DNA of 64,000 nucleotides. Origin: Candidatus Acetothermia bacterium. Its GTDB lineage: Bacteria; Bipolaricaulota; Bipolaricaulia; RBG-16-55-9. The notes below the pieces were generated by a model, which saw nothing but the letters and a program-made list of their open reading frames with translations, did no database searches and was not told where the DNA came from. The DNA is taken from positions 23,798 to 87,797 of the forward strand of contig JACQCZ010000016.1 of NCBI GenBank assembly GCA_016201405.1. The letters run 5' to 3'. Every line of letters starts with the position of its first letter. The stretch's first letter is position 1. The translations under genes were made by a program, and so were the position numbers. Below, piece by piece: positions 36,133 to 57,131 of this stretch.

Positions 36133-36629
36133 GACGATTGAATGGCGCGAATCACATGAATAAGATCAAGCAGTGCTTCTGCAGCTTCAATGCCTTTATC
36201 ACTTTCCAATCCAGCCCGCGCCCACGCTTGCTCAAGAGTGTCCGTCGTCAGAACTCCAAAGACGATTGGAATATCGGATTCCAGCGAGAGCTTGGTGATA
36301 CCCATAGTCATCGCCTGACAGATGTAATCAAAGTGCGGCGTCTCTCCCCGAATCACGCATCCCAAAGGAAGAATCCCATCATACCGTCCAGTCTGTGCGA
36401 GAGCATGAACAGCCTGTGGAAGTTCAAAGGCTCCCGAGACCCAGGCCACGTGAATCTCTTCTTCTGTTACATCATGACGCATCAGACAACTTTTGGCACT
36501 CTCGAGCAGTTTTTTTGTGATCGCAGAATGGAAGCGGCTGACGGCAATGGCAATCGTAAGACCTGCGCCGTCTCGCTTGCCTTCAAAGGTTTTATTTGTC
36601 TGCTTTGACAAGCGACTCACCTGGATCAC
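36129..36629 (-). CDS. ribH: 6,7-dimethyl-8-ribityllumazine synthase
   Basis: 166 aa. Lumazine synthase signature: GAFELP and the ...FDYI... region. ATGA overlap with the downstream gene. Confidence 0.9.
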
Positions 36630-37833
36630 CAGGGAAGAGGTGATCCAGCCTGTGTCCTAGCTTCTCTTTCTTCGTTTTGAGATAGCCGTAGTTGTAATTG
36701 TTGACCTCAAACGTGATTGGAAGCTGCTCGACAATATGCAGCCCATAGCTCTCGAGGCCTACGATCTTTTTAGGGTTGTTGGTAAGAATACGAATGGTAG
36801 ATAGCCCCAAATCCCGTAAGATCTGCGCACCAATGCCGTACTCTCTCAAATCTTCTTGAAATCCCAATTGGCGATTCGCTTCAACCGTGTCAAACCCTTG
36901 ATCTTGTAGATGATACGCTTTGATCTTATTCCCCAGCCCGATCCCGCGTCCCTCTTGTCTCAAATACAGGAAGACGCCCATGCCTTCATCTGAAATTCTT
37001 TTCAGCGCCTCTTCCACTTGGGAGCCACAGTCACACTTTAGTGAGCCGAGCACATCTCCCGTAAAACATTCTGAATGGACACGCACCAAAACATTCTCTG
37101 CCCCAGAGACATCTCCTATAGTGAGCGCAATGTGCTCTTTCCCATCCACCAGGCTGCGGTATGCATGGATCTCAAAGTTTCCATGACGAGTTGGCAGATG
37201 GGCAGAGGCGATCCGCTCAATCAAGACCTCCCGCTGGCAGCGATATTCGATCAGATCGGCAATGCTAATAATGAGGAGTTTATGCGCCTTGGCAAAGGTT
37301 TTGAGATCGGCAAGCCGCGCCATCGAGCCGTCCTCGTTCATGATCTCGCAGACAACGGCAGCCGGATAGAGCCCTGCCATTTTCGCCAGATCCATGCTGG
37401 CTTCGGTGTGGCCTGCGCGCTGCAGAACGCCGCCTGGCTTGGCTCGTAGCGGGAAGACGTGGCCAGGTTGCACAAGGTCTGAGGGGCGGGCGTTGGGATC
37501 GGAAAGAACTTTGATCGTCTGTGCTCGGTCAAACGCCGAAGTGCCCGTACTTATGTCATTGCGGGCGTCCACAGAAACGGTAAAGGCACAGCCATCCCCT
37601 GGGTTGCTCTGGACCATCATCTTGATTCCTAATTCATCAAGGCGCTCTTGCGACATGGGAACACAGATGATCCCTCGCGCGTGAGTCACCATAAAGTTGA
37701 TCTTCTCCGGCGTCACTTTTTGTGCTGCTAAAACCAAATCGCCTTCGTTTTCGCGATCTTCGTCATCGACAACAATGAGCATCTCACCTTGACGCATGGC
37801 TGATATCGCTTCTTCAATTGTGTTTAAGCCCAT
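36592..37833 (-). CDS. ribBA: Bifunctional 3,4-dihydroxy-2-butanone-4-phosphate synthase / GTP cyclohydrolase II
   Basis: DHBP synthase N-domain ([14 protein letters not shown]). GTP cyclohydrolase II zinc motif CxxC...C ([17 protein letters not shown]). Start placed at MGLNTIEEA. Confidence 0.9.
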
Positions 37834-38422
37834 TGAACTCCTCCTTTCGGAGTTGCTTTTGCACATATTTAGCCAGGATGTCAAATTCAATATTCACTTT
37901 ATCTCCCGTTTTTCGGTACTGCAAGGTGGTATTCGCGAAGGTATGCGGGATGACGGCCACTTCAAACTGCTCGTGGCTGATGTGAAAGGGGGTAAGACTG
38001 ACCCCATCAATTGCAATGGAACCCTTTTCAACAAGCCATGCGCTGTATAGGTCAGCGACGCGGAATTTGAAGAGGTGTGAGTCACTTTGAGCCTGAATCT
38101 TTACGACCTCACCCGTTGTATCCACATGCCCCTGCATCAGATGACCGCTAAGCCGCTCACCCACGGCTAGAGCCCTCTCTAGATTGACCCAGTCGGCTCG
38201 TTGAAGATGTCCGAGTGTGGTACGTTTGCTAGTCTCCGGGCTTAGATCAAACTCGACCAAGTTCTTTCCAGAATCAATGGAAACCACAGTGAGGCAGACT
38301 CCGTTGATGGCCACACTCTCACCTATCGCGACGTCAGAAGCGAGCGGTTTTGTAAAAATCACCAGATGATTTTGGGTCACTTCTTTCACTTCGCCTAGCG
38401 AGGCAATGATGCCAGTAAACAT
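37814..38422 (-). CDS. ribE: Riboflavin synthase (alpha subunit)
   Basis: Canonical N-terminus MFTGII and the duplicated lumazine-binding repeat. Start moved to MFTGII. Confidence 0.85.
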
Positions 38423-38546
38423 CTTAGACAGATCATAAACAACCTCTTTTATAAACCGCAATGATCTAAGTCAAGTAGTTGCAATTTGGATGCGGCACAG
38501 GTAGACTAAACTCCATTCAACGCAGGAGGAGAAAACCTCAGCCAGC

Positions 38547-40254: not shown

Positions 40255-40746
40255 ATGAACGAAGAGGTCAAGAGTGCTCTCCATGAATATCTCGAAGGTT
40301 TTTTAAAGACGCTGGGTGAGAGTGCAGAGATCCAGTTCAAGCATGAGAGCCAAGATGAGATCCATGTCAACATGCAGGGCCTTGTGGCGTTAGACGGAAT
40401 CGATCCAAAGCCTCTCAGGTCCCTGAGCTATCTTGCAGAGATCTCATTACGTCGCAAGCTCAATCAAGCTGTGCGAATTCAGCTAGATGCCAATGGTGGC
40501 CAGCAGCGCAGACAGCTCGATTTGCGCCGCATGGCGGAGAGTGCAGCTCAACGAGCGCTTCTAGAGGGCAAGGCCATCACGCTAGACCCCATGGAGACCC
40601 ATGAGCGCAAGATGATTCACGAAGTCTTGAGTCAGATTCCTGGGGTGCGCACGCACAGCGAAGGCCAAGGTGAAGCGCGCCGGGTGATTGTTGAACCAGC
40701 CAGTGGGGTCGAGACTCCGAGTGATCCGCAGACAGGTCAAAGCTGA
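40255..40746 (+). CDS. jag: Jag/KhpB-like RNA-binding protein (Jag_N, KH and R3H domains)
   Basis: The R3H motif is in the C-terminal part (ETHERKMIHEVL). Conserved yidC-jag gene pair. Confidence 0.75.
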   Translation: MNEEVKSALHEYLEGFLKTLGESAEIQFKHESQDEIHVNMQGLVALDGIDPKPLRSLSYLAEISLRRKLNQAVRIQLDANGGQQRRQLDLRRMAESAAQRALLEGKAITLDPMETHERKMIHEVLSQIPGVRTHSEGQGEARRVIVEPASGVETPSDPQTGQS

Positions 40747-40934
40747 TACACTGATACAGTCCCCAATAAATCAGAACAATTTGATGATTCGGCTTATGAT
40801 ACATCGGTGATACATGATAAATAATGATACACGTATCATCTATGTATCAGAGAGTGTATCATAAGAAAAGGCCCATGGAATCAGGAATGTATCACAATAT
40901 CAGTATTAGACGGCGTGTTGGAACAAAACGCTAC

Positions 40935-41996
40935 TCAATTCCAGGGAAGGACAAACTCCCAGTTGGGTCCCCTGAAGTAAGTCCCGATGATGACGAGCGC
41001 CAAGAAGAGGAGCATTGAGAATGTGAAGGCCATCACGGTGATGGGACGGGCACTCAGTCTTCTTCCTGGCAATGTCTTTCGGTCTCGCCTCCAAAACTCC
41101 AAGTAAGGCTCGATATACGGAATAGACATCCAGAAGAAGACGATGATCCCAGGCAGAATGACTCCACCAATCGAGATGGAGTTCAAGAAGCCACCTAGGT
41201 TAGGCGAGATTGCTAGCAGCTCTTGAATGCCCAGGAAATACCATGGAGCCTTCTCAGGATTGGGCGTAAATGTTGGCGTGGCAGCATGCTCTAGAGGTGC
41301 ATCGACCAGCAAGGCATAGACACTCAGCCCCCCCAGCAAGAAGAACAATACAGTGGCCACGACATAGAGATAATAGGGATAGGCCAATATCTCTTCGCGC
41401 TTTTCCATCTCGGCTGGGATGCGGCCCGAGAAGACTTTGATCATCATTTCGACCATGCGCTCGGTAAGGGGATGAGTAGACGGGATCTCACGCACCCGAT
41501 CTTCTTTGAGAAGGAATTCAAGAAGATCACAGAGCACGCGAAAATCAGCAGCGTCTCCACCACCATCGACTAGAATATGAACACGTCGCCGCAGATCTTT
41601 CAATCGCTTAATCGTGATCGCTTGCGAAGAATTGAATCGAACTTCATTCAGATGCTCAGCACAGTAATCAACAATGTCTGCAAGAAGGCCAGGATCAATA
41701 TCCATCGCCTCGGCCACTTCGTAGCCGGGGACTTCAATCTCTAAGTCTTCTGCAACTTTGACTTGACAGGAGAGGCGCCAACTCTTGGCGACTTTGTCTT
41801 TGAGCAGATCCTTCTCGTTGAAGTTGGGATCGCCGCCGCCCTTGAGAATGCGAACGGCACAGGTGGAGCAGGTCCCACGGCCTCCGCAGGTTGCGGGAAG
41901 GCTGCGGTTGTAGCCCTTCTCCTGAATGAATGTAAGGAGGTTTGTCCCTGTGGCAACTTCAAATTCCTCTTGGCCCAGAATTGTTACTTTAGGCAT
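40935..41996 (-). CDS. Fusion: a plant-type [2Fe-2S] ferredoxin domain, an unknown linker, and a cytochrome b C-terminal domain (subunit IV / PetD-like)
   Basis: N-terminus CGGRGTCSTCAV...C gives the 2Fe-2S Cys pattern. The C-terminal 160 aa carry three TM helices with the PEWY-like signature (NPEKAPWYFLGIQELL) of cytochrome b6f subunit IV. Confidence 0.7.
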   Translation of the reverse strand: MPKVTILGQEEFEVATGTNLLTFIQEKGYNRSLPATCGGRGTCSTCAVRILKGGGDPNFNEKDLLKDKVAKSWRLSCQVKVAEDLEIEVPGYEVAEAMDIDPGLLADIVDYCAEHLNEVRFNSSQAITIKRLKDLRRRVHILVDGGGDAADFRVLCDLLEFLLKEDRVREIPSTHPLTERMVEMMIKVFSGRIPAEMEKREEILAYPYYLYVVATVLFFLLGGLSVYALLVDAPLEHAATPTFTPNPEKAPWYFLGIQELLAISPNLGGFLNSISIGGVILPGIIVFFWMSIPYIEPYLEFWRRDRKTLPGRRLSARPITVMAFTFSMLLFLALVIIGTYFRGPNWEFVLPWN

Positions 41997-42918
41997 GTTG
42001 CGTGCTCGCCGATTTTACTCCGCTTAAGAGACTCTTCAATCTCTCGGTAACGGCGGATCCGCCTGGGAAACAGCCATCGGGTGAGGCTTTGCCTTGGGCA
42101 ACAGCCTGAGCAAACTGGTCGCAGGTCATCAAGCCACAGGCTTCGCAATCAAATCCAGGAAGCTGCACCCGAAGCTCTTTTGCAAGGGGTGTCATCTCAT
42201 GGCGACTAAAGACCGGCCAGAGGAGCATGAGCGGTTTATAGAGTCGAATGAGCATATCATTCTCGACCGGCATCTGACAGGCAATCACCCAGCCTTCATT
42301 CTTCTGACGGGGCGTCAAGACAGGGCCATAATTCTTATCGTCGAGATCCTGATTCTTTTGCAATACGCGCACTCGGCACGACGCGCATTCTCCTTGCGCA
42401 CTGCATTGGGTGAGGAGCTTGTAGCCGGCAGACTCCAGACCACGAATCAGCATCTCGCCCTGCTTGAGCGAGACAACATCTCCAGTATTTTCAATCTCCA
42501 CGAAACAGCGAGGTTGATGAACTTCGCGAGATTTCTTGAGTGTGTGCAGCAAAGTGAGCACCGATCCACCAATAAGCACCGGAACGAGCAGAGCAGAAAA
42601 TGTGGCAATCTCTGAGCTGTAAATTAAATATGCGATTAGACTCACAAGAAGCACAATTAACAGGACTTGAGCCCACGTGGGGGGGTCAGTCGTTTTGAAT
42701 TTCTCGAATAGAGCTTCAACGGCTAGAGCCACCAACTGGCATACAATCAGACCAACAGCAGCCGACTCGATGATTTGAACTAGACCTAGCTCAAACTGGC
42801 GGATCGTAAAGAAAACGATCAAAAATCCAAGAGTTCCAATGGCAATGGTCATCCAGCGCCATACCCACTTTTGCCCTTCCCATTCAGCTCTCACAAGTTG
42901 GACAGTCTTGGCACTCAT
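41989..42918 (-). CDS. RnfB-like electron-transfer subunit: a membrane anchor, a 2Fe-2S ferredoxin-like domain, and a PF04060-type Fe-S domain (no poly-ferredoxin)
   Basis: Two or three N-terminal TM helices. CSAQGECASCRV...C pattern. The C-terminal segment LPGFDCEACGLMTCDQFAQAV...SPDGCFPGG matches the RnfB/CdhE 'FeS' domain consensus. Confidence 0.6.
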   Translation of the reverse strand: MSAKTVQLVRAEWEGQKWVWRWMTIAIGTLGFLIVFFTIRQFELGLVQIIESAAVGLIVCQLVALAVEALFEKFKTTDPPTWAQVLLIVLLVSLIAYLIYSSEIATFSALLVPVLIGGSVLTLLHTLKKSREVHQPRCFVEIENTGDVVSLKQGEMLIRGLESAGYKLLTQCSAQGECASCRVRVLQKNQDLDDKNYGPVLTPRQKNEGWVIACQMPVENDMLIRLYKPLMLLWPVFSRHEMTPLAKELRVQLPGFDCEACGLMTCDQFAQAVAQGKASPDGCFPGGSAVTERLKSLLSGVKSASTQHA

Positions 42919-43955
42919 CGCGCTCGTCCATAGCTTCTCGGAGTGGTCAAGCGATTGAGCAGTGGAACAGAGGCGTTAGCGAGCAAGACAGAGAATGTGA
43001 CCCCTTCGTTGTCTCCAGCAACCGCCCGCAGCCCAAGCACCAAGAGGCCGATCAGAACTCCATAAATCAATTTTCCATGGAGAGTCATGGGACTGGTCAC
43101 AGGATCAGAGGCGATCAAGAATGCAGTAAATAGTAGGCTTCCTCCTAGAAGATGCAGGAGAGGTCCACCAATGAATACCGTAGGAAAGAGCATCTCCAGA
43201 AAAGCTTCACCAATCCCAACTGTGGCTAGGATCATGATCGAGACGCGCCAGTTTACAGTTCGCGTGAAGAGCATCCAGAAGCCTGCGAACAACATCAAAA
43301 TTCCAGACGTTGCTCCGATCGCACCTGGGACATTCCCGAGCAGAAGTTGTCCCGCGTCGTATGGAGAGCCAACTTGCATGACTATACTTAGTGGAGTTGT
43401 AGCCACCACTTGCGCATCTGGTGGTGCCCATACCGCAAAACCGCCCGGCCAACTTGAGAAGGGGACTGCCCAGTGCGTAGTCATCAATACCGGGAAAATC
43501 ACAATGAGCAAGGCTTTCCCAACCAAGACTGGGTTGAATAGATAAAATCCCAAGCCACCCAAAAGCTGTCGTGAGAGCGCCGCCAGCCCTGCACCAATCG
43601 CAACTATCCACAAGGGTAAGTTCGGAGGAAGTAAGAGGCTGAACAGGACGGCAATTACCAACAATCCGCTAACACGGCCACTGCCACGCAGCACTGAAAA
43701 GATCAACTCAATCACTCCCACAACAACCAGTGCCACCAGTATCACGGCCAGCACATGCAATCCAAAAAAGAAGATGCCACCCAGCACGGCTGGAGCGGCT
43801 GCAATGAGCGGCATCGTGAAAAAGCGCTGGACGTTTACGCCATCGCGAAGATAAGGCGGCCCCGAGACCGAGCGATCGCTGCCTCCGTAGAGCACTTCGT
43901 TTACGGCAGTAGCAACAACAGAGAAGTTGGACGAGCTCTTTGCAGACTGGCTCAT
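42915..43955 (-). CDS. rnfD: RnfD/NqrB-family membrane subunit
   Basis: About 10 TM helices and the conserved FMN-region motif SDPVTSP. Possible flavinylation-type G-A-T-S segment. Confidence 0.8.
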   Translation of the reverse strand: MSQSAKSSSNFSVVATAVNEVLYGGSDRSVSGPPYLRDGVNVQRFFTMPLIAAAPAVLGGIFFFGLHVLAVILVALVVVGVIELIFSVLRGSGRVSGLLVIAVLFSLLLPPNLPLWIVAIGAGLAALSRQLLGGLGFYLFNPVLVGKALLIVIFPVLMTTHWAVPFSSWPGGFAVWAPPDAQVVATTPLSIVMQVGSPYDAGQLLLGNVPGAIGATSGILMLFAGFWMLFTRTVNWRVSIMILATVGIGEAFLEMLFPTVFIGGPLLHLLGGSLLFTAFLIASDPVTSPMTLHGKLIYGVLIGLLVLGLRAVAGDNEGVTFSVLLANASVPLLNRLTTPRSYGRAR

Positions 43956-45373
43956 TCTTGCAACCTCTCCTCACGCAGCTCGTGCTTGCCCTTTTGAATC
44001 TGTTCGAGAACTGGAATCTTTGAAGGGCAGACATAGCTGCATAGCCCGCAGTCAATGCAGGCAAAAATATCAAGCTCTTGAGCTCGCTCCATCTGACCTT
44101 GATCCGCAGCCTGTGCAATCCAGATCGGGAAGAGATTCTGAGGGCAGACATCGACGCAATACCCACATTGGATACAGGAGCTCTCTGGACCATTCAATCC
44201 CGTCGTCGCTTTGCGTGCTCTCCCAAGAATCGGTGGAATGATGCGTGCATATGAATCCAAACCAAATCCTGGCATCAACCCACCCAGCAGGCGCTTTTTC
44301 GGTCTCTTAAGTGCAAGCAATGCAGTGGAATCTCGTAGAATGGGAGTTGTCTCATCAACGGCAGTCCCCCGCATCGGTCCGCCCAGAATGATTGCAGACT
44401 GGGCTTGATGCCCAAATATGTGGAGTAATTCTCCAGCGGGAGTTCCAATGCGGACCCGGGCATTGACTGGCCTGTCAACTGCAGAGCCTCCGATCGAGAT
44501 GAGCGCTTCTACAAGAGGCTTTCCTTCAATGGCCGCGTCGTACGCGGCAATCACCTGTGGGGTGCTCACCACCACGACACCAATCGCTGTTGAGAGCTGC
44601 CCCGATGGAACTTCCAAATTGAGCAGTGATTTGATCAGAACTTCATCTTCGCCCTGCGGATATTTAGGCAAGAGCGGATGCAAGAAGAGCCAGTCATGAT
44701 ATTCAAGGCGATTGGCAATCTCTTCTAGAATTTGAGGCTGATCATAGCCAATCCCAACATGAACTTCGATATTTCCAAGAGCAGCTTTCAGAACTTTGAT
44801 TCCTGAGACAAATTTCTCAAATTCCTCATAAAGAAGAGTCTTCGACACTTCCAGATAGGGCTCTGTCTCGACAGCATTGATGAGCAGATATTTGATCTTG
44901 TCTGGTTCAACAGTTGACGAATGCAGAGTCGTTGGAAGACCTGACTTCCCCAGCGCAGTAACGCCGGCTTCGTAGAGAACCCGCCCCAATTCCGCTCCGC
45001 CCCAGCGCTCGAAGTTCCCGGGGAGCAATCTCAATCTCTGCCATTCATCTGCTCCACTGCCCTCGATTGCAACTACAAGGGTCGGCTTGCCATCTATAGG
45101 ATGTTTCTCTTCCCGAATTGATGTGACCCGCCCCGTGATAGACGAAAGAATGGGAGTCGAGATCTTTTCATCAGAGCGTGCAATAATTTGTCCCGTCTTG
45201 ACGGAATCTCCAACAGATACAAGCAGCGCGGCCTCATCACCAAAGCCTTGGCGCAATGGAATGATAACTCGCTTGGGAAGCGGAGCATCAACAACTGAGC
45301 CTGAAGGGGTTCCTTCAAACGTCTTGAAATAATGGCCCCCCTTGAAGGTCTTGAGTGTGCCGATGATGGCCAC
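43952..45373 (-). CDS. rnfC: RnfC-family subunit (NADH-binding, two 4Fe-4S clusters). GTG start.
   Basis: RnfC N-domain (GGHY..., ...VSVGDSVKTGQIIA). Two ferredoxin-type motifs: CIQCGYCVDVCP and CIDCGLCSYVCP. The start codon GTG at 45371-45373 overlaps the upstream TAG by 1 nt. Confidence 0.85.
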   Translation of the reverse strand: MAIIGTLKTFKGGHYFKTFEGTPSGSVVDAPLPKRVIIPLRQGFGDEAALLVSVGDSVKTGQIIARSDEKISTPILSSITGRVTSIREEKHPIDGKPTLVVAIEGSGADEWQRLRLLPGNFERWGGAELGRVLYEAGVTALGKSGLPTTLHSSTVEPDKIKYLLINAVETEPYLEVSKTLLYEEFEKFVSGIKVLKAALGNIEVHVGIGYDQPQILEEIANRLEYHDWLFLHPLLPKYPQGEDEVLIKSLLNLEVPSGQLSTAIGVVVVSTPQVIAAYDAAIEGKPLVEALISIGGSAVDRPVNARVRIGTPAGELLHIFGHQAQSAIILGGPMRGTAVDETTPILRDSTALLALKRPKKRLLGGLMPGFGLDSYARIIPPILGRARKATTGLNGPESSCIQCGYCVDVCPQNLFPIWIAQAADQGQMERAQELDIFACIDCGLCSYVCPSKIPVLEQIQKGKHELREERLQE

Positions 45374-46149
45374 TAGGCTGCCTCCTCAGGTGGGGTGGAG
45401 TATTCATCTTTGCGAATTCTCCAGAAGTGTACGGCGATCAAAAGCACAATCAGCGTTGGCAACAGAAATACATGAATCACATACCAGCGAATGAGTGAGA
45501 ACTGATCCAGGTTGTTGCAGTTATCAACACCCAGAAGCCCTTGCCGCACCTGGTTGCCTATAAACGGGGCACTGTTGGCGATGTTGCAAGCGATCTTCGC
45601 AGCATAATATCCCAACTGATCCCATGGCAAAATATAGCCTGAGAATGCAAACATAATGGTGATGAGCAGAAGCAAAATTCCAATGATCCAGTTGAATTCT
45701 CGCGGTCTCTGATAGGCTCCCTTAAAAAACACAACAATCATGTGCATAAAGACGGCAAGCACCATCAGCTCACCCGCCCACTTATGAAGATTGCGGAAAT
45801 ATCGCCCCAAGTCTACCTGGTTGACGATATAGCGGATCGTGTCAAAAGCACGCTCTACAGAAGGGACATAGTAAAACATTAAGAAAATCCCCGAGATCAC
45901 TAAGATCACAAAGAGCCAGAATGTGATAACCCCCATCCAGAACCAGCTATAGGTAAGACGCATCGAGCTCTTATTGATCGTGGCTGGGAGAATATGCACA
46001 AAGAAATTTTTCCGGTTCATCGCCAGAAAGTCGCTCTCAGTTTGTGGCAAATGCTCACGGCGGAAGATGGAGGTCCAGAGCTTAGTCCGGCGCAACTGCT
46101 GCATCACTAAAACAAACTTATCGATCAGGCTGAAAAATATTGTATCCAC
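45373..46149 (-). CDS. Cytochrome b6-type (N-terminal four-helix, di-haem) subunit of a split Rieske/cyt b complex
   Basis: Haem-ligand helices RYFRNLHKWAGELMVLAVFMHMIVVFFKGAY...PREFNW and IRWYVIHVFLLPTLIVLLIAVHFWRIRK. The true start may be an internal Met. Confidence 0.8.
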   Translation of the reverse strand: MDTIFFSLIDKFVLVMQQLRRTKLWTSIFRREHLPQTESDFLAMNRKNFFVHILPATINKSSMRLTYSWFWMGVITFWLFVILVISGIFLMFYYVPSVERAFDTIRYIVNQVDLGRYFRNLHKWAGELMVLAVFMHMIVVFFKGAYQRPREFNWIIGILLLLITIMFAFSGYILPWDQLGYYAAKIACNIANSAPFIGNQVRQGLLGVDNCNNLDQFSLIRWYVIHVFLLPTLIVLLIAVHFWRIRKDEYSTPPEEAA

Positions 46150-46156
46150 AGTTCAA

Positions 46157-46789
46157 TTATCCCTGGCAGGGCTTGCAGTCCTTGCCCTCCGGCAAAACTC
46201 CCTTCACCATTTGACCCTGCTCCGGGTCAAAATATAGATCATGCCCCACCCCTACTCCTGCTAAACGACTCAACTCATCCGTCGCAGTTGTTTTGCCTTT
46301 GTCCACGATCAGACGCCCATCAGCAGAGAGACTGATCTCATAGAATGGCAAAGGTTTGGGAGCTGGCCCTCCGATGCGCTGTCCATTGCGTGCGAATACA
46401 CTTCCATGACAGGGGCACTGCGCGTGAACCACCGGGTAATCTGGGCTGGGTGGTCCAAACGGCTTGTATGAGCAGCCAAGGTGAGTGCAGATGGCCGAGA
46501 CCGCCTGAAATCCCTCTTGACTGCGAAAGATATAGACCTGGTATGTATCCAAGAGCTTCATGTCGCCAACCTGATAATCACTCGGTGGCCCTATGCTAAA
46601 GCTGGTCTTAGGCTCAAAGTTAAGCTTGGGCAAGATGAACGCAACTACGCTGGTAAACACACCACCCATCGTCAAAAGGAATGCGGTCAATCCAATACGG
46701 GTAAGAAATTTTCGGCGGGTGAATTGCTGCGCTGTCGGGGACTCTTCAAATCCAGATTGCTCGGTTATTTTTGGCTTTCTCTTGAACAT
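46157..46789 (-). CDS. Rieske [2Fe-2S] iron-sulfur protein with Tat signal
   Basis: Twin-arginine motif RRKFLTRIGL plus a TM anchor. Rieske boxes CTHLGC and CPCHGS. Confidence 0.85.
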   Translation of the reverse strand: MFKRKPKITEQSGFEESPTAQQFTRRKFLTRIGLTAFLLTMGGVFTSVVAFILPKLNFEPKTSFSIGPPSDYQVGDMKLLDTYQVYIFRSQEGFQAVSAICTHLGCSYKPFGPPSPDYPVVHAQCPCHGSVFARNGQRIGGPAPKPLPFYEISLSADGRLIVDKGKTTATDELSRLAGVGVGHDLYFDPEQGQMVKGVLPEGKDCKPCQG

Positions 46790-47087
46790 AATCGTTTTAG
46801 ATCCTCAGCATCGTATCCCCCCAAATTCAGCGTTTGTATGATCCTGATCATTCAAAGCAGTCACACAATCTTGCGAAAAATCGAGAATTTGAGGGGTTCA
46901 GACCGCATTATAGTGATTGATCCGTGAGGAGTCAATCGAAGGTTTATGTGTCATAAGATGGGAAAGAAAACCAGCATCGGCAGCCGATCATGGCTCGGAA
47001 TCGAAGAACCGATCTATCGTGGTCAGGCATCTTTTGTATAATAATGACCAACAAAATTTCGGAAATGAAAATGTCAAGAAGGAGCTT

Positions 47088-48568: not shown

Positions 48569-51142
48569 TCAGCGCACAACGACGACTTTGCGAATCACTG
48601 TCTGCTTTTGAAAGCCCGATGCACTTTTCGCAGTGATTACAAAGAGATAGACGCCATTGGCCATCTTATCTCCCATGGATTCGAGAGCATTCCAGCGCAA
48701 GGTCGATCCTTCTGTCTCAATGGCAAACCGCTGGCGGCCTGCAAGATCAAAGCCATGCACCTCGATGGATGAGATTCCCTGGCCCTCCACACTCAGAGTC
48801 CAAAGCGGGCCAGTTGAAGAAAGATTGATGGAACGCACTGAGAAGGCTTCAGCTGATTGCTGCGCTGGCGCCTGTTGTTGGATGATTGTAAATGGAATAT
48901 CTCGTGCTTCGGGAGAGAGCAAGAACTGCACATCTGGCCTCAGCTCAGCTGCGATCTTTTGATGAGACGCTGCAAGGTGAAGTCTCAAAATATTGGATTG
49001 CTTTGAGCCATTTCCTGGAGGAGCAATCATCAGAAAACGAACCTCGCCCCGCGCTTGGTCGATGGATGTAGCCAGAATCTTGTATTCTCCAAGGGCTTCT
49101 ATCTTCAGCACAGTTGTGCTGCGACCATCAAATAAGATTCGTCCCTGCACTCCGCCAATCGCACGTCCATCTGAGTTGATTTGAAGCGTGTACTCCCCTG
49201 CTGAGCTGGCTGGAATCAGCTTGATTTGGGCTGGCTCTGCTTGTGACCCGGCCATCCCCGGGAAGAGTCTCTGCAATATACTGAGCCAGACGGGAAGCAC
49301 GCTTTTCTCGCGATCAGACTGTGATGTTCTTGGCGTTGAAAGTGAGCTGCTTGTAATGGATGCAATGGATGCTTTGGCAATTGGAATCAAGTCCGCTGAG
49401 GTTAATGTTGTGCAATCAGGAATCGTCCCAGTCGCTGCCTTTGGCAGGGCTACGTCTGCGACAAGCTTCTGCGCATCGCTCAGCCCGGTGATGGCTGGCG
49501 GCTCATCAAAGCAGCCAAGGAGGGCCGTTGCTAACATGAGTACATCTTTGATGGTGGCACCATCATTCATGAGGTCCACATCTCCAAAGAGAGGGAGTAA
49601 GATGCTGCCGGAGATGACGCTCATCTGAGAGGTCAGATCGAGATCATCGACATCGAGAACTCTATCCACCTGAAAGATGAATGGACTCTTCTGACCTGGC
49701 TGTCCTTGTTTTGAAGTACGAATGTAAGCAATGACGTCAGGGGCTGGAATCCCCATTTTGGCCAAGTCAAGATGAGCTGGATCGATCGACAGCGTGAATT
49801 TTAATGATCCAAGCCGATTATCAATGTGAACGTCACTCACTTGATACGGCGAGACGGACGTGACCCCATCCACATGAACTACAGTCGCGTCAAATTGCAC
49901 AGATTGAGTCTGAACTTCGATCTTCCCTAACCCAGGGGAAGAAAATCCGACAACCTCCACTGGAAGATTCCCACCCGGAGACTGCACATCAAGAATGCGA
50001 AGCACACCGCTGCCTAGCATCACGGTATTCGCCGCCTGCACAATAAGATCTGTGGAAGAGTCAATGTCCGTGCCTGGTGGCTCTTGAGCGCTTAATACAG
50101 CCCTCAGATGAATCACGCGCCCCTTAAGTGCACTAATAGAAGGCGTAGCACGAACCTCGAAATCCAAACACTGCTCATCCGGAATAAAGAGACCTGGGGT
50201 GACGGACAGTGTGATGCCTGGTCCTCCGCGATTGAAGTCGGCTGTAAACCCCGGATCACCCGAGGTGATCTGCCCCCAAAGCTGTGGAATCCCCGAAATC
50301 ATATAGAGCTCGAACTTATCAAAATCATCAATCAGCGCACTGCCGAGTGGGCCCTGAGAGAGCGTCAGCGCATCGATCCGCAAGGAGTTCGCATTCGCAT
50401 CTTTATCGCAAACATGGAATCGCAGGGCGACGCCCGCTGAGCCTATCTTGATTGGAACAGGTGTAAAGTTCAGAAGAGTCAGGCTGTTGATTCCGCTGTT
50501 AGAGACATAGTCTTGATCGCTGTCCGTAGCCGCAAGGGTGAATGTCGTCGGAGTAGGAGGGCTGCCGATGCTCTCGGCGTATTGCAGAGTGACTTGAATT
50601 CTGACTGTCTTATTCTGGGCAGTATTCTGCAAGATCCCTGTCGGAGCAGTGAGCACAGCTACCTGGAACGTCTGCGTCCCATTATCGGGAATCGTATATC
50701 CACCCGCAGGAGTGACGTAAGCCTCAAAAGAGATATTCCCACCGCCAGGCGCCCCAGCAGGACATCCTGCCGGTGGAGCGCCTCCTGGCGCGGCTGTCGT
50801 CACTGGAGCCGCCACTGCCGTTCCAGTGCCATCAATGATCATCACGCTTGTAATCTCGGTCTCACTGGCCGAGCCTAAGTTTTGCACTAAAAAACAGTCA
50901 ATGGTGACGTCGCTCAAATCGTCCGCTTGCATGTCCGTATCTTTCGCTTTGAAGCTGAAAACGATCGACCCATCCCCCAAATCGGTCGGCGGGCCATCAC
51001 TCATAGGCGTATTGGCACCTGGCTCCAAATTGGTGCTTGGAGACAGAATTTCAGTGACATCGATCTGCCCGAGTGCCGTTTGCGAGATGCTAAAAAGAAG
51101 AAAGAGACTGAGCGCGACACGAATGATGGCTGATCTGGACAT
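48569..51142 (-). CDS. Large secreted surface protein (858 aa): N-terminal 'NLGSAS...ITSVMIIDG' domain, cohesin-like modules, dockerin-like module, T9SS-type C-terminal domain
   Basis: Signal peptide MSRSAIIRVALSLFLLFSISQTALGQ. Cohesin-like segments (VQFDATVVHVD...IDNRLGSLKF; QGRILFDGRSTTVLKIEALG...GEVRF). Dockerin-like Ca-loop GDVDLMNDGATIKDVLMLATALLG followed by ADVALP...LTSADLIPIAK. CTD ending ANGVYLFVITAKSASGFQKQTVIRKVVVVR. Confidence 0.7.
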   Translation of the reverse strand: MSRSAIIRVALSLFLLFSISQTALGQIDVTEILSPSTNLEPGANTPMSDGPPTDLGDGSIVFSFKAKDTDMQADDLSDVTIDCFLVQNLGSASETEITSVMIIDGTGTAVAAPVTTAAPGGAPPAGCPAGAPGGGNISFEAYVTPAGGYTIPDNGTQTFQVAVLTAPTGILQNTAQNKTVRIQVTLQYAESIGSPPTPTTFTLAATDSDQDYVSNSGINSLTLLNFTPVPIKIGSAGVALRFHVCDKDANANSLRIDALTLSQGPLGSALIDDFDKFELYMISGIPQLWGQITSGDPGFTADFNRGGPGITLSVTPGLFIPDEQCLDFEVRATPSISALKGRVIHLRAVLSAQEPPGTDIDSSTDLIVQAANTVMLGSGVLRILDVQSPGGNLPVEVVGFSSPGLGKIEVQTQSVQFDATVVHVDGVTSVSPYQVSDVHIDNRLGSLKFTLSIDPAHLDLAKMGIPAPDVIAYIRTSKQGQPGQKSPFIFQVDRVLDVDDLDLTSQMSVISGSILLPLFGDVDLMNDGATIKDVLMLATALLGCFDEPPAITGLSDAQKLVADVALPKAATGTIPDCTTLTSADLIPIAKASIASITSSSLSTPRTSQSDREKSVLPVWLSILQRLFPGMAGSQAEPAQIKLIPASSAGEYTLQINSDGRAIGGVQGRILFDGRSTTVLKIEALGEYKILATSIDQARGEVRFLMIAPPGNGSKQSNILRLHLAASHQKIAAELRPDVQFLLSPEARDIPFTIIQQQAPAQQSAEAFSVRSINLSSTGPLWTLSVEGQGISSIEVHGFDLAGRQRFAIETEGSTLRWNALESMGDKMANGVYLFVITAKSASGFQKQTVIRKVVVVR

Positions 51143-51377
51143 TTTCAGGAGTACTCCATCTCTCACCAGAATTTCACCGCCTTCTATTGTGTCAAAAGAG
51201 ACAGACAAAGGAGAAGAACATCCAACACCATACTGTGTTACGGCGATCACTCCCTCAGGGGATAACAAAGTGATGCGTGTGACAGACGTCACATCGATTC
51301 GGCGCATAGAATCATGCTATACTCAAGGGCAGAATCAAAACGATGGCCATGCGCCAGATGAGGAGGGCGACAATACG

Positions 51378-56045: not shown

Positions 56046-57131
56046 ATGAAAATGGAAGTCTTACATAAAGCGAAATCTATACGAGCTCTTGGCAATCTCT
56101 TTCTCGCCCTCGGGCTTTGTCTTTCATTGGCCATTGAGCTCAAGGCCCAGCCGACACCACCACCAATAGTCACACCAACCACAGCCACCATTGACGTGGG
56201 ACTTGTCACGGTTCCTCACGGAAGCACAGGAACAGTCAAGGTCTCTATCCAAGGTGCCCCTTCAAGTCTCTCCGACTTTCAGGGAAAGCTCACCTATGAC
56301 TCTAAAGTCGTCAACGTGCGCGAGATTGCAGGGCTCAATGGATACACCATTGCTGCATTTCAGATTGACAACCTGGATGGCGAAGTGCGCTTTATTGGAT
56401 TTAAGACTTCCGGCACGCTCATCACCGAAGGTGATTTTTTGCAATTTACGGTGGCCGCTGTCGGAGATACAAACTCTAGCACTTCGCTCAATATGGAATT
56501 TATTACGCTTAATGATGCTGCTGGCGTTGCCATCCCGCGCATCGTTCGCCCAGGGAAGTTCACGGTAGGCGCACAACAAGAGATCGCTGCCGATTTCTCT
56601 TGGGCGCCAGCCAATCCTGAGGTCGGACAAGAGGTCCAGTTCACGGACAAGACTGTTGCCGCAGGCACAACATTTAGCAGTTGGGCATGGGATTTTGGAG
56701 ATAACGCGACCAGCACAGAGCAAAACCCTAAACACAAGTACGCTCAAAAAGGAACATTTACTGTAAGCCTTACCATCGAAGATGATCAGGGGAATAAGGG
56801 CTCTGGACAGAAGCAGGTGGTCATCCGGGGACAGGGCGAGGCGATTACCATTCCGGCTCACAATTTTCCTAACCCCGCAAAGGATAGCACGACATTCTCC
56901 TATCAGTTGCCGCAAGGAACGACGCAAGCTTCGTTGACAGTCTATGATTTCACAGGGCCGCTCGTCTTCTCTAAGAGTCTTGCTGCGGACAGCATGAAGC
57001 TGGAGTGGGACCTCAAGGATCAGAGCGGACGAGACCTGCCCAATGGCGCCTATTATTACCGCATTTGGGCTTCCACAAAAGAGGGAGCAGTTCTGTCTAA
57101 AGTCGGAAAGCTGGTTATCATTCGATCATGA
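56046..57131 (+). CDS. Secreted cohesin-like, PKD-domain and T9SS-CTD protein
   Basis: Signal peptide. Cohesin-like domain (GTVKVSIQGAPSSLSDFQGKLTYDSKVVNVREIAG...GEVRFIGF...GDFLQFTVAAVG). PKD domain (WAWDFGDNATSTEQNPKHKYAQKGTFTVSLTIEDDQGN). CTD (NFPNPAKDSTTFSY...NGAYYYRIWASTKEGAVLSKVGKLVIIRS). Confidence 0.75.
   Translation: MKMEVLHKAKSIRALGNLFLALGLCLSLAIELKAQPTPPPIVTPTTATIDVGLVTVPHGSTGTVKVSIQGAPSSLSDFQGKLTYDSKVVNVREIAGLNGYTIAAFQIDNLDGEVRFIGFKTSGTLITEGDFLQFTVAAVGDTNSSTSLNMEFITLNDAAGVAIPRIVRPGKFTVGAQQEIAADFSWAPANPEVGQEVQFTDKTVAAGTTFSSWAWDFGDNATSTEQNPKHKYAQKGTFTVSLTIEDDQGNKGSGQKQVVIRGQGEAITIPAHNFPNPAKDSTTFSYQLPQGTTQASLTVYDFTGPLVFSKSLAADSMKLEWDLKDQSGRDLPNGAYYYRIWASTKEGAVLSKVGKLVIIRS

Follow-up and report, generated by a model that had tools for sequence, protein, structure and literature searches.

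A six-gene operon of Bipolaricaulota, derived by deletion from a nine-gene Rieske/cytochrome b-Rnf cluster, may encode an NAD(H)-linked membrane complex without the Rnf pump

Respiratory designs of the Rieske/cytochrome b-Rnf type have, to our knowledge, never been studied biochemically. For anammox bacteria, Rieske/cytochrome b complexes that include an NAD(P) reductase on the n-side are already an established idea: in the complexes Kuste4569-74 and Kustd1480-85 an n-side NAD(P) oxidoreductase accompanies a Rieske protein, a b6-like cytochrome b and a subunit-IV-like protein (PMC12954380). Rnf can also be rewired, as in Methanosarcina, where an additional cytochrome subunit links it to a membrane carrier (10.1101/2022.07.20.500911). 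For Candidatus Acetothermum, Takami et al. (2012) recorded in one sentence, with no mechanism, that rnfCDGEAB lies together with genes for a Rieske protein and cytochrome b (PMC3267732); the association, which an earlier note on the present DNA did not recognise as a described complex, is thus not entirely new. New here are the recurrence of the six-gene order in other assemblies, the fusion of an RnfA remnant to an RnfB-like protein (RnfB'), the nine-gene parent, a third, seven-gene form, and the purifying selection described below. In the six-gene operon, tethered iron-sulfur proteins seem to connect a quinol-oxidising Rieske/cytochrome b complex, on its cytoplasmic side, with the NADH-binding end of an Rnf from which the ion-pumping core has been deleted.

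The window, that is, the whole stretch of DNA analysed, comprises 64,000 nt of Candidatus Acetothermia bacterium (assembly GCA_016201405.1, contig JACQCZ010000016.1), and the operon occupies positions 40935-46789 of its minus strand (Table 1). The coordinates of the six open reading frames match those described earlier, and the frames are intact and translationally coupled, every junction being overlapping or no longer than 7 nt: a gap of 7 nt separates genes 1 and 2, the G of the gene 2 stop codon is also that of the GTG start of gene 3 (TAGTG), ATGA overlaps join gene 3 to gene 4 (43952-43955) and gene 4 to gene 5 (42915-42918), and genes 5 and 6 overlap by 8 nt. A promoter-like site lies in the divergent intergenic region that the operon has in common with an aldehyde dehydrogenase gene; such sites are no more numerous in the region than expected from shuffled sequence, and this one is a consensus match alone. 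The start and stop overlaps were found as the earlier note had claimed them, as were the absence of rnfA, rnfE and rnfG, none of which was detected by tblastn in the whole 64-kb window, and that of an encoded c-type cytochrome, with no CxxCH motif in any open reading frame of at least 110 aa.

Table 1. Genes, protein domains and promoter-like site of the operon, in window coordinates
Feature	Position (nt)	Strand	Length or residues	Remarks
Promoter-like site	46907..46935	-		TTGACT-17-TATAAT, 11/12 consensus matches, ~118 nt upstream of Rieske start
Gene 1, Rieske	46157-46789	-	210 aa	
Gene 2, cytochrome b6-type	45373-46149	-	258 aa	
Gene 3, RnfC	43952-45373	-	473 aa	GTG start
Gene 4, RnfD	42915-43955	-	346 aa	
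Gene 5, RnfA remnant + RnfB'	41989-42918	-	309 aa	
RnfA C-terminal remnant	42604..42918	-	aa 1-105	three predicted TM helices; hhalign
RnfB'	41989..42603	-	aa 106-309	TM helix, 2Fe-2S domain, PF04060
RnfB' NqrF-like 2Fe-2S ferredoxin domain	42265-42495	-	aa 142-218	PF00111; nqrF TIGR01941 E 6.6e-13
RnfB' 4-Cys Fe-S domain	42064-42162	-	aa 253-285	PF04060 match
Gene 6, ferredoxin:subunit IV fusion	40935-41996	-	353 aa	
2Fe-2S ferredoxin domain	41754..41984	-	aa 5-81	PF00111; Cx5CxxC...C, NqrF/vertebrate-type, cytoplasmic
Helical linker domain	41382..41723	-	aa 92-205	orphan, no homologue outside family
Subunit-IV-type cytochrome b C-terminal half	40938..41381	-	aa 206-353	ExtQ model E 5.8e-14

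Both HMM matches and motifs uphold the assignments previously given to the Tat-Rieske protein, the b6 half, RnfC, RnfD and the ferredoxin-subunit IV fusion. The gene 1 product matches PF00355 and bears a Tat motif (TRRKFL), which predicts a Tat-exported 2Fe-2S protein; its cluster-binding motifs are CTHLGC and CPCHGSVF, with Ser kept and Phe replacing Tyr, and an additional C-terminal motif, D-C-K-P-C, is specific to the six-gene clade. Cytochrome b6 is the best PDB match of gene 2 (7r0w_I, E 7.6e-43; Cytochrome_B PF00033, 147 bits), in which spacers of 13 and 14 residues separate the four haem-ligand His residues, the 14-residue spacing being of the b6 type, and Met occupies the position of the haem-ci Cys. 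The identity of RnfC and RnfD, which the earlier note had exposed to refutation by HMM scores, is confirmed by them. RnfC (PF13375, PF01512 and Fer4; TIGR01945 322 bits, above the cut-off of 246) consists of an RnfC_N barrel, a Nuo51-type FMN/NADH domain and two [4Fe-4S] sites (two CxxCxxCxxxCP motifs), with a family-specific insert of ~38 aa ahead of the Fer4 domain; its binding of FMN and NADH is not assured, because the glycine loop, canonically GGAxFPT, has diverged to G[Q/K]AGFPT in the family and to GKSGLPT in the window. RnfD is a polytopic membrane subunit (PF03116, 233 bits; motif SDPVTSP) that scores 193 bits against TIGR01946, slightly below the cut-off of 207, and in the window has the flavinylation-type motif DAQVVAT-TPL.

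Gene 5 had been called RnfB-like, a description that suits its RnfB' part, with PF00111 and PF04060, but not its N-terminus, which hhalign identifies as a remnant of RnfA (residues 34-104 against RnfA 118-187, probability 93.9%, E 1.6e-7; controls against RnfE and RnfG below 0.4%) and which lacks both Cys residues that ligate the 2Fe-2S centre of RnfA/E. Whereas canonical RnfB has a polyferredoxin for soluble ferredoxin, RnfB' contains no 4Fe-4S polyferredoxin domains and has an NqrF-type 2Fe-2S domain in their place; its score against rnfB TIGR01944 is 43 bits, below the cut-off. In gene 6 the ferredoxin domain constitutes the N-terminal end of subunit IV, which in the established b6f topology lies on the n-side. 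The C-terminal half, which shares 39-43% identity with PF00032-containing cytochrome b proteins and itself falls below the Pfam threshold for PF00032, is predicted to form three TM helices and an ef-loop helix and carries an invariant Qo-loop motif, TPNPEKAPWYF, whose APWY is a variant of PEWY. The linker has no Pfam match, and a search of 1.84 billion representatives gave three matches, two of them family members and the third weak and of unassigned affinity. A single-chain structure model of the fusion is of moderate confidence (pLDDT 69), its membrane half having no fold match.

The relatives of the locus belong to Bipolaricaulota/Acetothermia/'Fraserbacteria', and not to the FCB group in which the earlier note had proposed to look for them. 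The same six-gene order is found in loci L001, L002, L015/L016, L021, L022 and L023 and, in part, in L020 and L024; it recurs in at least seven independent assemblies (NCBI, JGI, ENA, Logan) that differ in sample and assembler, and is thus not peculiar to one assembly, as a chimeric contig would be. Other relatives within Bipolaricaulota have a nine-gene locus, Rieske-cytb6-RnfCDGEA-RnfB'-ferredoxin:subunit IV, in which RnfG is intact (DAITGAT) and both RnfE and RnfA have their Cys pairs. The operon of the window is a deletion derivative of this nine-gene parent, so the former statement that it 'merges' two systems hides its descent. The seven-gene form, L026, retains an RnfA remnant 47% identical to RnfA 125-171. 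This remnant is similar to that of the window, but the locus groups with the nine-gene loci, and 0 of 100 bootstraps united it with the six-gene clade, so the Rnf pump core was probably lost twice, in independent events. The flavinylation motif of RnfD, strictly DAIAKAT in the main nine-gene clade and DAATTAT in L018/L019, is eroded in the six-gene loci L002 and L022, and L015 has an insert of ~90 aa in the flavinylation loop, changes that we count in favour of a pump path that may have gone out of use.

Purifying selection is strong on all six genes (dN/dS 0.012-0.134), the flanking yidC and aldehyde dehydrogenase genes lying at 0.06-0.09, and the Cys ligand motifs of RnfC, RnfB' and the tethered ferredoxin are all conserved. 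The individual values are 0.074 for the Rieske protein, 0.012 for cytochrome b6, 0.057 for RnfC, 0.22 for the RnfA remnant and 0.078 for RnfB', and, within gene 6, 0.080 for residues 1-92, 0.057 for the linker and 0.009 for the subunit-IV half. RnfD stands at 0.098, strong purifying selection that a role in docking alone would leave unexplained.

From their gene context and sequences, the six proteins may form one NAD(H)-linked Rieske/cytochrome b membrane complex without the Rnf pump, a tentative reading that we hold at close to even confidence. The earlier proposal that the Rieske/cytochrome b and Rnf parts are one unit gains from the lack in RnfB' of a polyferredoxin at which ferredoxin would dock and from the persistence of purifying selection after the pump core was lost. 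In all 20-plus loci, moreover, the rnf genes separate the b6 half of cytochrome b from its subunit-IV half; the ferredoxin domain and the unique, selected linker are part of subunit IV itself; the same gene set has been kept through two probably independent deletions; and among 5.8 billion proteins the ferredoxin:subunit IV and RnfB' architectures, families of similar size (~53 and 60 clusters), were not found apart from each other. These latter features tell against two separate systems that are merely co-transcribed, a menaquinol-oxidising Rieske/cytochrome b complex and a leftover RnfC/RnfD/RnfB' set of unrelated soluble function; genes of one operon need not encode one complex, some RnfC homologues have functions other than in Rnf (one of the profile matches is PrdC) and Acetothermia have 'several homologs of RnfC' (PMC9586279), but we consider this arrangement quite improbable. 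An artefact or decay, whether a chimeric contig or pseudogenising rnf remnants, might be suspected from the missing pump core and the eroding RnfD flavinylation loop of some relatives; it is rejected, as exceedingly improbable, on the strength of the independent assemblies, the intact coupled frames and dN/dS of 0.01-0.13.

In the proposed complex, the Rieske protein, cytochrome b6 and subunit IV would make up a quinol-oxidising core with Qo and Qi sites and haems bP and bN, and an n-side (cytoplasmic) Fe-S chain would join this core to the NAD+/NADH site of RnfC, passing from the 2Fe-2S centre of subunit IV through the 2Fe-2S and PF04060 clusters of the RnfA remnant-RnfB' fusion to the two 4Fe-4S clusters and FMN of RnfC. 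Membrane docking would be the main role of RnfD and the three-helix RnfA remnant; since the RnfA/E centre is gone, transfer between RnfB' and RnfC would have to be direct and, at this step, uncoupled from ion translocation. The ancestor would have been a nine-gene supercomplex in which the same ends were joined via a complete ion-translocating Rnf core (RnfD-G-E-A). The direction that we prefer, at less than even confidence, is oxidation of NADH at RnfC and entry of single electrons at the haem bN/Qi side, much as ferredoxin has been proposed to feed cytochrome b6f during cyclic electron flow. At Qi, quinone would receive one electron that comes from NADH and a second that is recycled from Qo. 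With the Rieske centre delivering to a periplasmic acceptor, the outcome would be a Q cycle primed by NADH or, at the least, an NADH:quinone reductase.

The opposite direction, quinol-driven NAD+ reduction, was one of those suggested by the earlier note and is possible; we rate NADH feeding the Qi side as somewhat more likely for organisms that are presumably heterotrophic or fermentative. In such a Rieske-bifurcated NAD+ reductase the electrons from Qo would be split, one going through a high-potential Rieske centre to an external oxidant and the other through b haems of very low potential, the tethered ferredoxin and RnfB' to RnfC and NAD+. The wiring evidence is the same as for NADH input, flow from RnfB to RnfC and NAD+ is the forward direction of canonical Rnf, and the Ser of a Rieske protein raises the potential of its centre, so that a Ser-type Rieske working with a menaquinone pool would fit bifurcation. 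The anammox clusters are a direct conceptual precedent, and the Kuenenia Rieske protein Kustd1480, which has the same Ser/Phe signature (CPCHGS-x-F), titrates at +335 mV (PMC12954380). What makes bifurcation unlikely in our judgement, if still a serious contender, is that the potentials of the b haems would have to lie near -320 mV or lower and a strong oxidant be at hand in the periplasm, whereas neither the operon nor the 10 kb around it in the six-gene loci encodes an acceptor, a c-type cytochrome or a terminal reductase; that the phylum has been portrayed as one of acetogens, fermenters or heterotrophs (PMC3267732, PMC9586279), which should not need reverse electron flow for NADH; and that, on thermodynamic grounds, it would leave the intact Rnf pump of the nine-gene parent without driving force between haem bN and NAD+.

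The tethered 2Fe-2S domains might also be docking sites that take low-potential electrons from soluble enzymes, for instance hydrogenase, PFOR or CODH, and pass them to NAD+ via RnfC (a non-pumping ferredoxin:NAD+ oxidoreductase) or to quinone via haem bN/Qi (a ferredoxin:quinone reductase), in effect a short-circuited ferredoxin hub. By Rnf/NQR polarity, only flow from RnfB' to NAD+ could drive ion export in the nine-gene parent, and this coupling would require a donor below the NADH potential; with no polyferredoxin in RnfB', the ferredoxin tethered to subunit IV could stand in for a soluble one, and the Methanosarcina rewiring offers an example (10.1101/2022.07.20.500911). Against this reading, which we find rather improbable, none of the loci examined has a gene for a ferredoxin-reducing enzyme linked to the operon, and the retention and conservation of the Rieske protein would be left unexplained. 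Nor do we know of any partnership of NqrF-type tethered 2Fe-2S domains with PFOR or hydrogenases.

For the preferred NADH input there are, in addition, some slight pointers. The NqrF-type 2Fe-2S domains of Na+-NQR work close to the potential of NADH, and electrons run downhill from NADH to menaquinone without any call for unusual haem potentials. The gene divergently adjacent to the operon, in the window as in L001, L015/16 and L021, encodes an NAD-dependent aldehyde dehydrogenase, which weakly favours NADH as the electron source.

The six minus-strand open reading frames lie exactly where the earlier note had placed them, and its gene assignments and anatomy are upheld by both Pfam and NCBIfam models. 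In transcription order, the operon encodes a Rieske protein, the b6-type half of a cytochrome b, RnfC, RnfD, a fusion of an RnfA remnant with an RnfB-like protein (RnfB') and a fusion of a 2Fe-2S ferredoxin with a subunit-IV-type C-terminal half of cytochrome b (Fd:SUIV). The first two genes are separated by a gap of 7 nt, the stop codon of the b6 gene and the GTG start of rnfC have one G in common (TAGTG), ATGA overlaps occur at the rnfC/rnfD junction and between rnfD and the RnfA-RnfB' gene, and the last two genes overlap by 8 nt; good Shine-Dalgarno sequences are found upstream of rnfC and rnfD. The operon had also been described as missing rnfA, rnfE and rnfG and as devoid of c-type cytochromes, and both observations hold: none of the three rnf genes is detectable by tblastn in the 64-kb window, or present in the flanks of the homologous loci L001 and L002, no operon gene encodes RnfG and no tblastn match to RnfG in the 64-kb window is better than E=5, and the CxxCH motif occurs in none of the window ORFs of at least 110 aa.

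The proteins of the Rieske/cytochrome b module combine ordinary and unusual features. The Rieske protein (PF00355) carries a TRRKFL Tat motif and the CTHLGC and CPCHGS motifs, all of which are kept in every locus, and its second cluster loop reads CPCHGS-x-F, with the Ser retained and the Tyr replaced by Phe; a Ser in this loop raises the potential. The b6-type half (PF00033, 147 bits; closest NCBIfam models ExtP and cytochrome b6; best PDB matches cyanobacterial b6, E ~1e-42) has four His haem ligands, placed as pairs in helices B and D with the b6-type 14-residue spacing in helix D, and has Met at the position of the haem-ci/cn Cys (FYCLGG versus FWMGVI in the alignment). The Fd:SUIV protein consists of a Fer2 domain and an ExtQ-like membrane domain (ExtQ model E 5.8e-14): an N-terminal 2Fe-2S domain of the NqrF/vertebrate type is followed by a helical linker of ~110 aa (dN/dS 0.057), for which no homologue outside the family was found among 1.84 billion representatives bar one weak match, and by a C-terminal half with three TM helices that shares 39-43% identity with its counterpart in ordinary, PF00032-containing cytochromes b. 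The Qo loop of this half is an invariant TPNPEKAPWYF (APWY, not PEWY), and TPNPxKAPWYF is common to the ordinary cytochrome b relatives. PF00032 is below threshold for the fusion protein, Pfam returned nothing significant for the isolated C-terminal half, the linker or the N-terminus of the RnfA-RnfB' protein, and the family profile of Fd:SUIV matched ferredoxins and NqrF only in the PDB. An AlphaFold2 model of moderate confidence (pLDDT 69, ef-loop <50) was likewise matched by Foldseek against the PDB through its ferredoxin domain only, with no fold match for the subunit-IV half. Since the fold search matched just the ferredoxin domain and PF00032 stays below threshold, it is on sequence that we identify the C-terminal half as subunit IV of cytochrome b. 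The family amounts to ~53 clusters, beyond which the scores fall sharply to ordinary cytochromes b.

Among the Rnf-derived proteins, RnfC scores above the cut-off of its family model (TIGR01945 322 bits, cut-off 246; PF13375, PF01512 and Fer4 present; E 2e-53 against the RnfC chain of A. vinelandii in 8AHX), and both of its CxxCxxCxxxCP 4Fe-4S motifs are intact. Its Nuo51-type glycine loop, canonically GGAxFPT, is G(Q/K)AGFPT family-wide, the window and its closest relative L023 having GKSGLPT, ECEPY is replaced by ETEPY, and a family-specific insert of ~38 aa lies ahead of the Fer4 domain. RnfD matches PF03116 with 233 bits and the 8AHX chain with E 4e-38, and scores 193 bits with TIGR01946, below the cut-off of 207. 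In RnfB' a Fer2 domain separates the TM helix from PF04060; the protein has no Fer4 domains and no polyferredoxin, scores 43 bits with TIGR01944 (cut-off 69) and resembles NqrF only in its TM and Fer2 parts (TIGR01941 positions 13-152 of 405). This architecture was found in 60 clusters among 5.8 billion proteins, all of them from the Bipolaricaulota/Acetothermia lineage; two PF04060-type Cys motifs are seen in the RnfB' of L018/L019.

A genome-collection scan with Fd:SUIV returned 14 loci, all in MAGs whose titles name Ca. Fraserbacteria, Bipolaricaulota or Acetothermia except for two, whose titles say nothing useful or seem to be mislabelled, and the named cluster members are likewise Acetothermia/Bipolaricaulota, so that the FCB-group affiliation suggested from the sequence was wrong. 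The identical six-gene order recurs in L001, L002, L015/L016, L021, L022 and L023, and in part in L020 and L024, in assemblies from NCBI, JGI, ENA and Logan whose flanks differ. A chimeric contig, or an order confined to one assembly as the earlier note had allowed for, is ruled out, at least seven independent assemblies sharing the order. Comparison with L023 gave dN/dS values of 0.074 for the Rieske protein, 0.012 for b6, 0.057 for RnfC, 0.098 for RnfD, 0.134 for the RnfA-RnfB' fusion and 0.040 for Fd:SUIV, next to 0.09 for the flanking yidC and 0.06 for the aldehyde dehydrogenase gene, which rules out pseudogenization. The six-gene operon is real, conserved and functionally constrained, and artefact or decay is excluded as an explanation.

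The origin of the operon can be approached through a second group of loci (L003-L014, L017, L018/L019 and L025) that carry nine genes, in which ~2 kb between rnfD and the rnfB' homologue encodes RnfG (FMN_bind, with a DAITGAT motif), RnfE and RnfA (both PF02508, with both Cys pairs intact). Their order, Rieske-cytb6-RnfC-D-G-E-A-RnfB'-Fd:SUIV, is therefore the parental one. In the six-gene loci the RnfB' protein is ~100 aa longer N-terminally than its nine-gene homologue, and a profile of this extension aligns to RnfA 118-187 with a probability of 93.9% and an E value of 1.6e-7 (RnfE and RnfG controls, <0.4%), from which we conclude that a deletion removed rnfG, rnfE and the 5' part of rnfA and left the 3' end of rnfA fused in frame to rnfB'. 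The RnfA remnant has neither Cys ligand of the intramembrane 2Fe-2S centre and is under purifying selection (dN/dS 0.22). The evolutionary framing of the earlier note, in which the operon "merges" two modules, thus needs correction, the operon being a deletion derivative of the nine-gene cluster.

A third, seven-gene architecture without RnfG and RnfE is found in L026 (Ca. Acetothermia, GCA_016179105.1), where the order is Rieske-b6-RnfC-RnfD-(RnfA remnant+TM+Fer2, 259 aa)-(soluble Fer2+PF04060, 185 aa)-Fd:SUIV and the remnant is 47% identical to RnfA 125-171. In a neighbor-joining tree of four concatenated proteins (1352 columns, midpoint rooting), the six-gene loci are monophyletic in 100/100 bootstraps and L026 falls with the main nine-gene clade; one deletion shared by L026 and the six-gene clade found no support, their joint split appearing in 0/100 bootstraps of this midpoint-rooted tree. 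Because L026 groups with the nine-gene loci and not with the six-gene clade, this tree indicates that the pump core was probably lost twice, with recombination as the alternative. Both reduced forms keep RnfC, RnfD, the C-terminal RnfA helices, RnfB' and Fd:SUIV. The flavinylation motif of RnfD is DAIAKAT without exception throughout the main nine-gene clade and DAATTAT in L018/L019; it reads DAQVVAT in the window (D-x4-A-T kept), is eroded in L002 and L022, and is interrupted in L015/L016 by an acidic insert placed exactly in the periplasmic loop of the flavinylated Thr. Since the motif is eroded or interrupted in six-gene loci, the sequences suggest relaxed constraint on the periplasmic FMN path once RnfG/E/A had gone.

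The Rieske protein also differs between the two groups, its C-terminus being D-C-x-P-C on an extension of ~20 aa in every six-gene locus (L001, L002, L015, L021, L022 and the window) and GSDIKFS in the nine-gene loci; the periplasmic CxxC coincides with the loss of RnfG/E/A. A linked c-type cytochrome as Rieske acceptor was considered and rejected, the candidates lying outside the operon and being missing from the six-gene loci: no credible CxxCH ORF was found within 10 kb of these, and the sole CxxCH ORF at L001 is an alternative frame over RnfD. Many nine-gene loci (L003, with equivalents in L004-L007, L010, L011, L014 and L025) have a tetrahaem cytochrome c gene past an Mrp/ApbC-like ATPase and an Rrf2-type regulator, whose product is a candidate Rieske acceptor there, though outside the operon, and a five-haem cytochrome c is encoded in the divergent nine-gene lineage of L018/L019.

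The closest relative in fact is OP4C155-0162 of Ca. Acetothermum autotrophicum, from the same phylum and apparently of the same gene family, which one sentence of Takami et al. 2012 (PMC3267732) lists as rnfCDGEAB together with genes for Rieske and cytochrome b proteins and which matches the nine-gene loci L003-L014, L017-L019 and L025; compared with it, the window operon is without rnfG, rnfE and most of rnfA. The passages on this cluster regard it as a conventional Fd:NAD+ Rnf serving acetogenesis and leave the Fd:subunit-IV fusion, the non-canonical RnfB' and a functional link unmentioned (PMC3267732). The novelty claimed in the earlier note therefore needs correction, the clustering of Rnf, Rieske and cytochrome b genes having been noted in 2012, whereas a search of full-text literature found no paper on the Fd:SUIV fusion, the RnfB' architecture, the reduced operon forms or the mechanism.

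With respect to the Rnf complex itself (7ZC6, 8AHX, 9ERI), RnfC and RnfD are clear homologues, the PF04060 domain of RnfB is present and all six subunits occur in the nine-gene parent, whereas RnfG and RnfE are missing from the window, RnfA survives as a C-terminal part with its cluster ligands gone, and RnfB lacks the polyferredoxin and has acquired a 2Fe-2S domain of NqrF type. With RnfE absent and the RnfA remnant devoid of cluster ligands, ion translocation through the A/E centre is impossible, and the operon falls outside the definition of an Rnf complex, since it has no RnfG and no RnfA/E pair and its RnfB departs from the canonical form. Cytochrome b6f, for which n-side ferredoxin input has been proposed in cyclic electron flow, and the menaquinol:cytochrome c reductases share with the window the b6/subunit IV split, the 14-residue His spacing of helix D and the Tat anchor of the Rieske protein. 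In contrast to them, the window has no cytochrome f/c1 or c-type haem protein, and it also differs in the absence of the haem-ci Cys, in the APWY motif of the Qo site and in the ~200 aa of ferredoxin and linker at the N-terminus of subunit IV. By its core components the operon thus counts as a Rieske/cytochrome b complex, but not as b6f proper, for it has neither a c-type cytochrome nor the haem-ci Cys.

In concept, the operon appears closest, by analogy, to Na+-NQR, to the cytochrome-extended Rnf of Methanosarcina and to the NAD(P)-linked Rieske/b complexes of anammox bacteria. Na+-NQR is likewise an Rnf-type scaffold serving NADH-to-quinone transfer, NqrF is the closest relative of both Fer2 domains of the window (TIGR01941; PDB 8a1t_F), an N-terminal TM helix precedes the Fer2 domain in NqrF and RnfB' alike, and NqrA/NqrB, the quinone-reducing end, correspond to RnfC/RnfD. 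Unlike Na+-NQR, the window has no FAD/NADH (FNR-like) domain of NqrF and no NqrC/D/E homologue, its RnfC retains the Fe-S motifs whereas NqrA is cofactor-less, and its quinone chemistry would come from the Rieske/cytochrome b module. MmcA-Rnf sends electrons to a membrane carrier instead of NAD+. In Methanosarcina acetivorans, where the Rnf operon is extended by the cytochrome subunit MmcA (10.1101/2022.07.20.500911), an intact Rnf core is partnered by a periplasmic multihaem c cytochrome, whereas in the window the core has been deleted and the partner is a Rieske/cytochrome b module that would be contacted from the cytoplasm. In the anammox complexes Kuste4569-4574 and Kustd1480-1485, a b6-like cytochrome b is joined by a Rieske protein, a subunit-IV-like partner and an Fe-S chain that leads, on the cytoplasmic side, to a NAD(P) site; their function is likewise proposed only (PMC12954380). 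The window shows an analogous architecture, with a Rieske Ser/Phe pair identical to that of Kustd1480. By their published description (PMC12954380), their NAD(P) module is FAD-based with 4Fe-4S/3Fe-4S clusters and p-side hexa- or octahaem c subunits act as Rieske acceptors, whereas the window has RnfC (FMN-type Nuo51 fold), RnfD and 2Fe-2S connectors, and no CxxCH ORF.

The b6f topology puts the N-terminus of subunit IV, with its ferredoxin domain, in the cytoplasm, and RnfB' has a 2Fe-2S domain in place of its soluble-ferredoxin interface. We propose an Fe-S relay on the cytoplasmic side that would connect haem bN/Qi, the ferredoxin of Fd:SUIV, RnfB' (2Fe-2S, 4Fe-4S), RnfC (2x4Fe-4S, FMN) and NAD(H), with RnfD and the RnfA remnant serving as docks. 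With RnfA/E/G absent, the transmembrane Rnf route is closed and the Rnf part cannot pump. Tentatively, we favor a direction in which NADH donates electrons to the Qi side and the complex runs an NADH-primed Q cycle or works as an NADH:quinone reductase, since this flow would be downhill at ordinary haem potentials and an NAD-dependent aldehyde dehydrogenase is a conserved divergent neighbor. NqrF-type clusters operate near the NADH potential, which argues for the same direction. In addition, members of the phylum are described as fermenters, acetogens or heterotrophs (PMC3267732, PMC9586279), which should not need reverse electron flow. NADH-to-RnfB' flow through the intact parental pump would mean ion import, so that deletion of the pump would be advantageous.

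The quinol-driven, Rieske-bifurcated NAD+ reductase of the earlier note is a serious rival, if a rather unlikely one: it has the anammox complexes Kuste4569-74 and Kustd1480-85 as a precedent, and the Rieske Ser/Phe signature equals that of Kustd1480, titrated at +335 mV (PMC12954380), whereas the electron flow that it implies is the one that such fermenters and acetogens should not require. A ferredoxin-hub model appears improbable. Still less credence is given to two independent systems that are merely co-transcribed; the rnf genes are bracketed by the two halves of one cytochrome b, and the gene set outlives the loss of the Rnf core, under selection. Returning to the joint reading, it is possible, though we hold it with reserve, that an Rnf-Rieske/cytochrome b supercomplex evolved in Bipolaricaulota, that its ion-pumping RnfG/E/A core was lost at least twice, probably independently, and that the remnant is an unrecognized class of respiratory enzyme. 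If so, the n-side low-potential chain of a Rieske/cytochrome b complex would be in direct electron exchange with NAD(H), by way of RnfC and tethered 2Fe-2S proteins, in a quinol-bifurcating NAD+ reductase or an NADH-primed Q cycle, and the "Rnf" widely cited as the energy-conserving Fd:NAD+ pump of deep-branching acetogens would not be a canonical Rnf.

Electron exchange between the n-side of a Rieske/cytochrome b complex and NAD(P)(H) is still a proposal, so far from the anammox complexes (PMC12954380), for which the operon family would provide an independent and much simpler test case: it has six proteins and lacks multihaem cytochromes, and forms with and without the pump exist in nature and can be compared. 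[quoted passage not shown] An RnfB with an NqrF-type 2Fe-2S domain is relevant to the origin of Na+-NQR from Rnf, and the probably repeated deletion, sparing RnfC and RnfD and, each time, the same C-terminal stretch of RnfA, amounts to a natural experiment on which parts of Rnf are structurally interdependent.

Coordinates of features in the window and in homologous loci
Locus	Coordinates	Feature	Remarks
Window	1-35000	Long minus-strand block, over most of this stretch, of apparently polysaccharide/glycosyltransferase-type genes	Judged by ORF list only
Window	36592-38461	Riboflavin biosynthesis genes (ribBA, lumazine-binding riboflavin synthase)	Adjoin yidC-jag, near the operon
Window	40744-40894	TGATACA heptamers	8 of the 12 in the window, in the ~190-bp convergent jag/operon-end spacer
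Window	40935-46789 (-)	Six-gene operon	
Window	46157-46186	Rieske aa 201-210	GKDCKPCQG
Window	46907-46935	Strong sigma-70-like site, candidate promoter	Divergent region common with aldehyde dehydrogenase gene; 11/12, consensus match only
Window	48569-51307, 53732-55903, 60194-63961	Very large ORFs	No Pfam match
Window	56046-57131	ORF with PKD domains and type IX secretion C-terminal sorting domain (Por_Secre_tail/CHU_C)	
L003	14167-15366	Tetrahaem cytochrome c, 395-433 aa across L003 and its equivalents	Opposite strand, ~2.6 kb downstream of operon
L015/L016	~8300-8600	Acidic insert in RnfD	~90 aa
L018/L019	524-2239	5-haem cytochrome c, 569 aa	Divergent, adjoining Rieske gene; 3.2-Mb contig
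L018/L019	9105-9920	RnfB'	
L026	8405-9773	RnfA-remnant/TM/Fer2 and soluble Fer2/PF04060 genes	

Elsewhere in the window, no respiratory genes are evident from the ORF list of the first 35,000 nt, where neither of the two ORFs scanned with Pfam gave a match. The ORF with the type IX sorting domain may be the source of the FCB-group guess. The riboflavin-gene neighborhood is repeated in L015, L021 and L023 and lies divergently upstream in L025; its proximity to the operon may be incidental or tied to the flavin demand of RnfC and RnfD. The TGATACA heptamers beyond the end of the operon, five on the plus strand and then three on the minus strand, are conserved in the close relatives L023 and L024 and absent from L015, L021 and L001, and could serve as an array for protein binding or form a structured terminator region.
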